A stretch of 1,842 nt of DNA from NCBI RefSeq assembly GCF_044324875.1, contig NZ_CP172193.1; one strand, 5' to 3'. This stretch comes from Escherichia coli (GTDB taxonomy: Bacteria > Pseudomonadota > Gammaproteobacteria > Enterobacterales > Enterobacteriaceae). The first letter of the stretch is position 1, and each line of letters opens with the position of its first letter. Positions 1,064-1,083 of this stretch are shown here, in pieces. A program made the position numbers and the translations under genes. Under the pieces are notes generated by a model. That model did no database searches, was not told where the DNA came from, and worked only from the letters and a program-made list of their open reading frames with translations.

Positions 1064-1083
1064 GTCTGGGGAGAACCCCAGAC
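1064..1083. other. Perfect hairpin: 8-bp GC-rich stem (gtctgggg / ccccagac) with AGAA loop
   Basis: Seen directly: 1064-1071 is the exact reverse complement of 1076-1083. Not followed by a T-run on either strand, so not a canonical intrinsic terminator. An imperfect longer stem (acggttccgg 1028-1037 / ccggaaaccgt 1053-1063) lies just upstream. Consistent with a structured RNA or DNA element. Confidence 0.4.

Follow-up and report, generated by a model that had tools for sequence, protein, structure and literature searches.

A conserved hairpin pair in the non-coding block of a small Escherichia coli plasmid, a candidate single-strand priming element

The ssiA signal of ColE1 is a single-stranded motif that is exposed by leading-strand synthesis and recruits PriA (PMC3167613). 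In small plasmids of the pHW126/pIGRK/pIGMS31 type, whose replication (Rep) proteins are of the winged helix-turn-helix (wHTH) kind, palindromes resembling single-strand-initiation (ssi) signals are dispensable for replication and affect copy number and multimerisation (PMC6854812; bioRxiv 10.1101/2022.12.05.519187), and the wHTH Reps of these plasmids have been linked to pSN2/RepL-like rolling-circle families (PMC2831885). Here we describe a pair of hairpins in a stretch of 1842 bases (the window), which is a complete small cryptic E. coli plasmid of the RepL type, Col(MG828). The pair is unannotated, widespread and structurally conserved, and it is most likely a palindromic element of the single-stranded DNA (ssDNA) priming, or ssi-like, kind. 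Our favoured reading, held tentatively, is that the hairpins form an accessory ssDNA structure within a priming module similar to an ssi or to the single-strand origin (sso) of rolling-circle plasmids. The hairpins and the cassette that they form are as follows.

1027-1087, no strand assigned: two-hairpin cassette of ~60 nt, from the left boundary CACGG to the trailing C-run at 1083-1087.
1032-1060, no strand assigned: hairpin 1, TTCCGG[CA]GCGC-CTTGA-GCGC[AA]CCGGAA, an imperfect stem of 12 positions.
1064-1083, no strand assigned: hairpin 2, the element under study, GTCTGGGG-AGAA-CCCCAGAC, a perfect 8-bp stem (1064-1071/1076-1083) with the loop AGAA at 1072-1075.

The elements of pHW126, pIGRK and pIGMS31 resemble this cassette in being non-coding palindromes or hairpins near the replication region of tiny enterobacterial plasmids with distantly RepL/pSN2-like Reps. 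They differ in lying in AT-rich DNA with iteron origins, whereas the cassette is embedded in a GC-rich mosaic that includes pieces of ColE1 and IncI1, and the likeness is one of description only. With respect to ColE1, a true homologue of the ssiA/n'-primosome assembly site (pas) lies 300 nt downstream of the cassette, at 1389-1485, and both elements would rely on hairpins in exposed ssDNA. The cassette itself showed no sequence similarity to ColE1 and lacks AAGCGG, which we take to be the n'-pas motif; the similarity is confined to 1389-1485 and the motif to 1437-1442, where it occurs on the + strand only.

Structure and constraint of the hairpins

The perfect 8-bp stem and AGAA loop of hairpin 2 were found just as the original prediction had described them. 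The second, imperfect stem that it had placed at 1028-1063 was also recovered and is best drawn at 1032-1060, where a 2x2 internal loop (1038-39/1053-54) interrupts the stem and positions 1044-1048 form the terminal loop; allowing one bulged A lengthens it to 1030-1063. The same prediction had called hairpin 2 isolated, which holds in the sense that no other perfect hairpin in the window reaches 8 bp with a 3-8-nt loop, but not otherwise, as it stands second in a tandem pair and opens a series of conserved hairpins in a module of 450 nt. The C-run at 1083-1087 that follows hairpin 2 varies in length from C4 to C8 among homologues, and since either C-run can serve as partner for GGGG at 1068-1071, the pairing may slip into alternative registers.

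Folded as ssDNA, the 76-nt hairpin pair reached -21.7 kcal/mol on the + strand (z-score -5.3) and -23.1 kcal/mol on the - strand (z -4.1), and none of 200 shuffles folded as stably; hairpin 2 alone gave -9.0/-9.3 kcal/mol (z -3.8/-4.3). Stable GC hairpins of this kind, just downstream of two + strand open reading frames (ORFs) and near an AT/GC boundary, could terminate transcription, or act as an insulator, between the AT-rich half of the plasmid, with rep, and its GC-rich transfer half. This reading is scarcely credible. No T-tract follows the hairpins on either strand, a scan of 850-1842 returned 0 terminator-like sites against 1.2 expected, and the upstream contexts of the hairpins in other plasmids are unrelated. 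The earlier statement that these are not simple terminators therefore stands. We conclude that hairpin 2 is most likely a secondary-structure element acting at the level of DNA, rather than an RNA gene or a terminator, and its reality rests on the pattern of conservation across homologues and not on its single occurrence.

The homologue set combined loci from a metagenome scan (84 loci), which was anchored on invariant sequence 3' of the hairpin and so avoided selection for the hairpin itself, with loci from PLSDB, and comprised about 110 copies and 35 distinct segment variants. Overall, stem positions varied at 0-3% per site and unpaired positions at 6-27%, and the hot spots of variability coincided exactly with unpaired positions. 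The internal loop of hairpin 1 is hypervariable (12% at 1038-39, 27% at 1053), its stems are 98.6% paired, and its terminal loop is invariant except in inversions. In hairpin 2, loop positions 1072-75 varied at 3-15% per site and the stem at 0-3%; twelve variants were seen in about 110 copies, with the loops AGAA, AGAC, AGAG, AGTA and GGAA and the flipped forms TTCT and GTCT. Neighbouring core sites were 20-55% variable, and few positions of the whole module vary less than those in the hairpin stems.

Pairing and covariation were counted on a gap-free alignment of 22 distinct variants. Paired cells made up 92.6%, compared with 24-48% when partners were slid, and the covariation score was 0.042 versus 0.027 for shuffles, a value reached by 3 of 500 shuffles; two-sided change was observed at three pairs. 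In hairpin 2, L190 carries a T.A to C.G compensation (GTCC..GGAC), for which L179 provides a one-sided intermediate. The hairpin is rewritten in L204 as GTGTGGGG-TGGC-CCCCGCGC, with one C.G to G.C change and two T.G pairs, and in L148/L173 as GTT(C)GGGGG-CACG-CCCCCAAC, and the rewritten hairpins of L148 and L204 still fold. In hairpin 1, a C.G to T.A change gives GTGC/GCAC in L149, L164 and L194. A global RNAalifold consensus of 34 sequences gave a covariation term of only -0.34, because lineages without the hairpins muddied the consensus, and the targeted counts for each hairpin were therefore used. The original prediction was to be abandoned if homologues lacked compensatory changes; such changes were found in the loci listed above, although the signal is weak. 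Together with the freer variation of unpaired positions, they give modest support to a conserved single-strand secondary structure, modest because the family is young and few of the events are independent.

The hairpins are non-coding, as had been proposed. A "hypothetical protein" is annotated over 934-1230, and its reading frame was not preserved among homologues: segments are 83-87 nt long, with C-run indels of +1 to +3 nt, the L010 type has an 11-nt insertion and L204 a 38-nt deletion, and the left part of the ORF is swapped for unrelated sequence in many lineages. Because these indels break the frame, we regard the region of the cassette and core as non-coding.

L204 also contains, at 1570-1865 on the - strand of a 2078-bp contig, a second copy of the module that has lost the 38 nt of the core start (ATCGCTG...GACCA). 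This locus keeps a rewritten, pairing hairpin 2 without the core start, which uncouples the hairpin from the CTG trinucleotide and the core start that lie 3' of it.

Recurrent inversion of the hairpins

At least five exact reverse-complement flips were observed, of hairpin 1 in L009/L185 and in L087, such that both parental forms of this hairpin have exact whole-hairpin inverted derivatives, and of hairpin 2 in L156, L190 and L219. The flipped loops of hairpin 2 are TTCT (L156 and L190), the complement of AGAA, and GTCT (L219), the complement of AGAC. The two hairpins flip one without the other and on different backgrounds. Since L009 and L087 come from finished or isolate assemblies, the flips are not only a metagenome artefact.

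Small inversions associated with hairpins are a known class of events, and recurrent exact inversion of a hairpin is the product of intrastrand template switching at an extruded hairpin. Our loci resemble template switching at quasi-palindromes in that a loop, or an entire imperfect hairpin, is inverted exactly between short inverted repeats; the difference is that template switching is a mutational process and not a function, and it serves here as evidence of extrusion. Because the recurrent exact flips carry this signature, they argue that the hairpins form in vivo and that the orientation of the loop is unimportant. The pair would be a clean natural example of recurrent hairpin inversion, useful as evidence of extrusion in vivo.

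The same observations bear on the possibility that the hairpins are neutral or selfish palindromes with no function of their own, that is, quasi-palindromes of a recombination junction that keep their symmetry by arm-to-arm template switching and hitch-hike with the core. The frequent flips and drifting loops fit this explanation, template switching can carry changes across to the other arm and so mimic compensation, and a single 8-bp hairpin is not improbable by chance; moreover, the cassette lies exactly at a breakpoint with many unrelated flanks, and several core-bearing lineages lack it. Mere passengers, however, would hardly be expected to show stems varying at 0-3% next to core sites varying at 20-55%, to remain intact through at least 10 independent flank exchanges, to keep folding when rewritten, as in L148 and L204, or to hold the terminal loop of hairpin 1 invariant outside inversions. 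We therefore consider this explanation unlikely; if it were correct, the finding would be an ordinary one.

A further alternative, raised in part by the original prediction, which had allowed for a protein recognition structure, is that the hairpins are duplex palindromic sites or cruciforms bound by a dimeric protein such as a Rep, a relaxosome component or a partition factor. Most stem positions are conserved in sequence and not in pairing alone, the loop of hairpin 1 is invariant, and inversion of a spacer leaves a palindromic operator unchanged, which is consistent with the tolerated flips. On the other hand, variants that change the arms and keep the pairing (L190, L149, L204, L148) would harm a sequence-specific site, the loop of hairpin 2 varies and flips, no protein is common to the settings in which the cassette is found (RepL-type, Rep_1 and large plasmids), and the Rep-binding sites of pKL1 are reported upstream of rep, not in the cassette. 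Protein recognition is thus weakened and we retain it as an improbable rival.

The surrounding module and a possible role in priming

The left boundary of the cassette, CACGG at 1027-1031, is sharp. The cassette, moving as one unit with the core, adjoins at least 10 unrelated left flanks, with the break always at CACGG, and has been kept intact through at least 10 independent flank exchanges. To its right, the following features make up the rest of the module.

1088-1300, + strand: conserved non-coding core, starting ATCGCTGTAACAYCGACGGTCTACGACCACC and matched in 757 plasmid records.
1092-1094, + strand: CTG trinucleotide, 8 nt 3' of hairpin 2 and unpaired in the ssDNA fold, a candidate start site for DnaG by analogy.
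1195-1208, + strand: core hairpin CCCCT-GGTT-AGGGG, with compensatory changes and wobbles.
1261-1276, + strand: core hairpin ATGCCC-TGGC-GGGCAT, fully paired in 118 of 118 copies.
1389-1485, + strand: homologue of the ColE1 ori-bom segment (ssiA/n'-pas region), 75% identical over 99 nt to the ColE1 record.

In the core, invariant blocks alternate with variable ones, and further local hairpins were found, of which those at 1195-1208 and 1261-1276 are supported. The first becomes CCCGC-TGGC-GCGGG in L010, L150 and L148, a change of two compensatory pairs, and its variants TCCCT, CCCTT, TCCTT and TCTTT form T.G wobbles whose pairing is limited to the + strand (7 cells vs 0). The second has the loop variants TGAC, TGGC, TGAT and TAAC and a 7-bp stem, ATGCCGC...GCGGCAT, in the L133, L011 and L154 types. 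A long hairpin, GACGGTC...GACTGTC (1102-1139), that appeared in minimum-free-energy folds was rejected, as its left arm is invariant and its right arm varies without compensation. In L010, L150 and L148, the segment aligned to 1168-1195 is rewritten, and an 11-nt insertion there makes an extra imperfect hairpin, GTAGTT-CCGGT-AACGAC.

The ColE1 ssiA/n'-pas homologue follows the core each time, and its orientation shows that the + strand of the window corresponds to the RNA II-sense, displaced strand of ColE1. Within it, positions 1401-1407 and 1427-1431 change together at a frequency of about 26%, which resembles arm-to-arm covariation of a GTCGAT/ATCGAC stem.

The core was found linked to RepL-type, Rep_1, IncFII-RepA-like and, in part, IncX4 replicons, in origin-proximal non-coding DNA. 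A 24-kb conjugative plasmid carries the core and pas homologue about 400 bp downstream of an IncFII-RepA-like gene; a 4.2-kb plasmid has them upstream of a gene for Rep_1, a rolling-circle protein (E = 4e-86); and in IncX4 part of the core is found some 790 bp upstream of the initiator gene. Module and rep share one orientation in 91 of 91 RepL-type and 4 of 4 RepA-type copies. Assignment of a displaced strand by way of the Rep_1 plasmids was attempted and abandoned, since the nick strand is not assignable there and orientations are mixed. All five Rep_1 loci (L011 at 3400-3430, L152, L159, L175 and L208) have ATCCCTTAAGTATAAATACAAGGAT upstream of rep, a probable double-strand origin hairpin. 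The wobble bias and the pas orientation indicate that the acting strand of the core is probably the + strand; for the cassette, the evidence is weak and does not favour either strand.

These findings led us to favour the following mechanism, in which the module would be ordered as the cassette (its 5' accessory part), the invariant core and the ColE1 ssiA/n'-pas homologue. When a plasmid strand becomes single-stranded, in replication or after transfer, the GC-rich stem-loops would extrude, and these stable hairpins would resist coating by single-strand binding protein (SSB). They would thereby form a fixed structured landmark beside the invariant unpaired sequence CCCCC-ATCG-CTG-TAAC, at which host priming proteins, either DnaG primase directly or the PriA primosome, would begin synthesis of the complementary strand at a defined position. 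What we infer for the module as a whole is the priming function, the acting strand and the enzyme. Direct entry of DnaG at the CTG at 1092-1094, suggested by analogy, is in our judgement rather doubtful as a specific form of this mechanism.

The analogy is to the origin of phage G4. The annotated origin of complementary-strand synthesis in G4 consists of stem-loop I, then CTA, then CTG. Like hairpin 2, stem-loop I is a short, perfect, GC-rich hairpin with an A-rich loop of 3-4 nt, with more hairpins on its 5' side and an unpaired CTG on its 3' side, which here comes after an unpaired C-rich stretch. The two differ in that G4 has three hairpins, as opposed to two here, and that in our family the CTG is not universal and several lineages lack the hairpins; the resemblance of the cassette to the G4 origin is an analogy only. 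The module may also be likened to the sso of rolling-circle plasmids, as it is long, highly structured and non-coding, has a fixed orientation relative to rep and has its core in a Rep_1 plasmid, and as RepL-type Reps have been linked to rolling-circle families; the likeness is one of general layout, and orientation relative to Rep_1 is mixed.

A number of observations weigh against the priming reading. The core occurs without the cassette in four lineages (the L133, L011, L141 and L154 types), where unrelated sequence extends up to ATCGCTG; because these lineages keep the core, the cassette is an add-on and at most accessory. The CTG at 1092-1094 is lost in L006, where it is CGG, and is CTT in L011, and its distance from the hairpin is 8 nt here, as opposed to 3 nt in G4. 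A distant-mode blastn search of 50,697 phage records gave no match to G4, other microviruses or any other phage origin, only three mis-filed copies of this plasmid. Perfect hairpins with a stem of 8 bp or more and a loop of 3-8 nt arise in 15.7% of dinucleotide shuffles of the window (7.6% for the GC block alone), so that the lone hairpin is not beyond chance. Only 2-4 independent events underlie the covariation, stems are broken on one side about 6 times, mostly in singletons, and some of the compensation may be mechanistic, as switching from arm to arm can yield such changes without selection. With respect to the strand, the wobble evidence is weak (about 5 events favour the + strand and 1 the - strand), the majority form of hairpin 1 pairs slightly better on the - strand, ssDNA folding z-scores are alike (-2.3 vs -2.1) and provide no thermodynamic discrimination, and orientation beside Rep_1 is mixed (4 opposite, 1 same). 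Finally, no homology ties the cassette to any characterised ssi.

The strand data also bear on whether the hairpins are the 5' domain of a structured RNA, i.e., a rightward primer or regulatory RNA under antisense control in the manner of ColE1 RNA II/RNA I, which the original prediction had suggested by likening them to the 5' stem-loops of primer RNAs. The stem-loops are in tandem, the + strand has the sense of RNA II when judged by the pas and bom homologues, the wobble bias of the core favours the + strand, and RNA folding of 960-1260 on both strands, which had been proposed as a check, gave z -2.3 on the + strand and -0.9 on the - strand; furthermore, the 4.2-kb plasmid L005 has the unit corresponding to 908-1475 and no recognisable rep gene. 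Nevertheless, no Rfam family matched; the window gave no hit to RF00106 at E <= 10, and L005, L008, L010 and L011 gave none at the gathering score, whereas the control ColE1 record gave RNAI at 73.8 bits, and the method thus detects RNAI. BLAST at word size 7 found only the pas and bom homology and none to ColE1 RNA II/ori. No promoter-like site was found in 956-1842, and a weak sigma-70-like site occurs within 260 nt in only 4-5 of 35 left-flank types, so that no promoter is conserved; a terminator was absent in the 850-1842 scan. Because the host plasmids have their own Rep and origin and several lineages dispense with the cassette, we give this explanation little credence and set aside the likeness to primer RNAs.

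Another explanation is that the cassette and the core start form a third nick site, similar to an origin of transfer (oriT) or a double-strand origin, in which an inverted repeat (IR) is followed 8-11 nt later by ATCGCTG/T (the slash marks the nick) and a relaxase or HUH Rep acts in trans. An IR with a conserved 3' flank is typical of transfer origins, two oriTs are already present in the block, and the module junctions are sharp. However, the nick consensus YATCCTG/Y is matched only with an inserted base, the IR is missing from core-only lineages, no relaxase accompanies the element, and the cassette matched no oriT-bearing plasmid beyond its own family. The CTTGA loop of hairpin 1 was also considered as a nick site of the Rep_1/phiX type and rejected, since CTTGATA is absent, the Rep_1 loci carry the other motif, ATCCCTTAAGTATAAATACAAGGAT, and most cassette plasmids lack Rep_1. 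A third nick site is therefore very improbable. A ColE1 cer/Xer site and an Frpo-like ssDNA promoter were likewise considered and dismissed, as no XerCD-core-like sequence and no -35/-10 hexamers are visible in the stems.

We return to the priming reading, which has a stronger form: the cassette and core might be a portable complementary-strand origin shared by at least four unrelated replicon families, with the hairpins as a new class of host-primase entry site, G4-like without homology to G4. This is an ambitious claim that we would not expect to hold. If it did, hundreds of "cryptic" 1.5-2 kb E. coli plasmids would have a common, exchangeable device for priming the lagging or recipient strand, and the flips of the hairpins would naturally report the frequency with which this device is single-stranded.

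Plasmid context, distribution and further features

Over its full length, the window shares 99% identity with NZ_CP070127 (1843 bp, of the Col(MG828) replicon type) and is kin to pMG828-1 and to the 1549-bp size class of pKL1. Its left half (1-950) is 26-48% G+C and holds the rep gene and a 72-aa ORF without a family match; its right half (950-1740) is 55-66% G+C, non-coding and without annotation in any record. Plasmids of this type, 1.5-2 kb in size, are among the commonest E. coli replicons, and the unannotated GC-rich block is more than a third of their sequence. Three further features were identified outside the module.

114-638, + strand: gene for a RepL-family replication protein (Pfam RepL PF05732, E = 1.3e-4, above the curated cut-off).
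1483-1568, + strand: IncI1-type oriT-like segment, with an IR at 1514-1523/1542-1551 followed by ACATCCTG.
1673-1735, - strand: ColE1 bom/oriT-type segment, 100% identical over 60 nt to ColE1.

The rep gene lies on the same strand as the hairpin module and is labelled RepL in NZ_CP070127. For the related plasmid pKL1, a Rep-dependent origin that includes an IHF box and Rep sites is reported upstream of rep (PMC3832669), a location that falls outside the GC-rich block. In the window, nested repeats, TTTCGTAC/GTACGAAA, occur at 1-110, just upstream of the RepL gene, together with a perfect palindrome, ACGCAAACA-TGTTTGCGT, at 27-44; these are probably the Rep operator or the origin reported for pKL1.

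The segment at 1483-1568 finds its match in an IncI1/B/O plasmid, 15 bp upstream of the mobA(nikA)-relaxase operon, and the bom segment at 1673-1735 is present in at least 5000 plasmid records. The plasmid therefore has two different transfer origins in inverted orientation, and these share 25-nt arms (1484-1508/1711-1735) that are 92% complementary and form a long inverted repeat. Their sequences suggest that the plasmid could be mobilised by two types of helper. If the block is a mosaic of priming signals and two transfer origins, this would explain second-strand completion in minimal plasmids, mobilisation by both ColE1-type and IncI1-type helpers, and recombination of the block as a unit between replicon families.

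Matches to block 940-1300 were found in 757 plasmid records. The cassette and core start occur in 512 of 5,426 complete E. coli genomes (about 9%), where 616 of 619 places are on plasmids. A scan of genome contigs with a 16-nt degenerate anchor returned about 120 loci, of which about 117 were due to chance, leaving only L069, L087 and L122 as real, and a scan of viral contigs with a 23-nt anchor gave no match. A full-text literature search for the hairpin and core sequences, which did not include the primary pKL1 papers, gave no match. The three phage-collection records OR844749, OR844798 and OX638291 (1.4-1.9 kb, labelled "Escherichia phage") are members of this plasmid family, with 94-96% identity over 321 nt.

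In the 145-kb IncF plasmid CP099153 (L012, 3001-3106), the cassette and about 45 nt of core are fused to bom-like sequence beside IS26. This copy is a truncated relic in a large plasmid, and its left flank is shared with L150 and L153. The E. coli-type plasmid was also seen in Gram-positive assemblies, of Streptococcus parasanguinis (L087), Macrococcus hajekii (L069) and Staphylococcus aureus (H26, NZ_CP090002), and these occurrences most likely represent contamination rather than true host range.

An imperfect palindrome centred on GTTAAC was observed at 909-949, on the AT/GC boundary of the window. Two copies of it occur in the 4237-bp plasmid L005, which lacks a recognisable rep, one of them inverted beside a regulator gene, and the palindrome is a possible operator or origin element.

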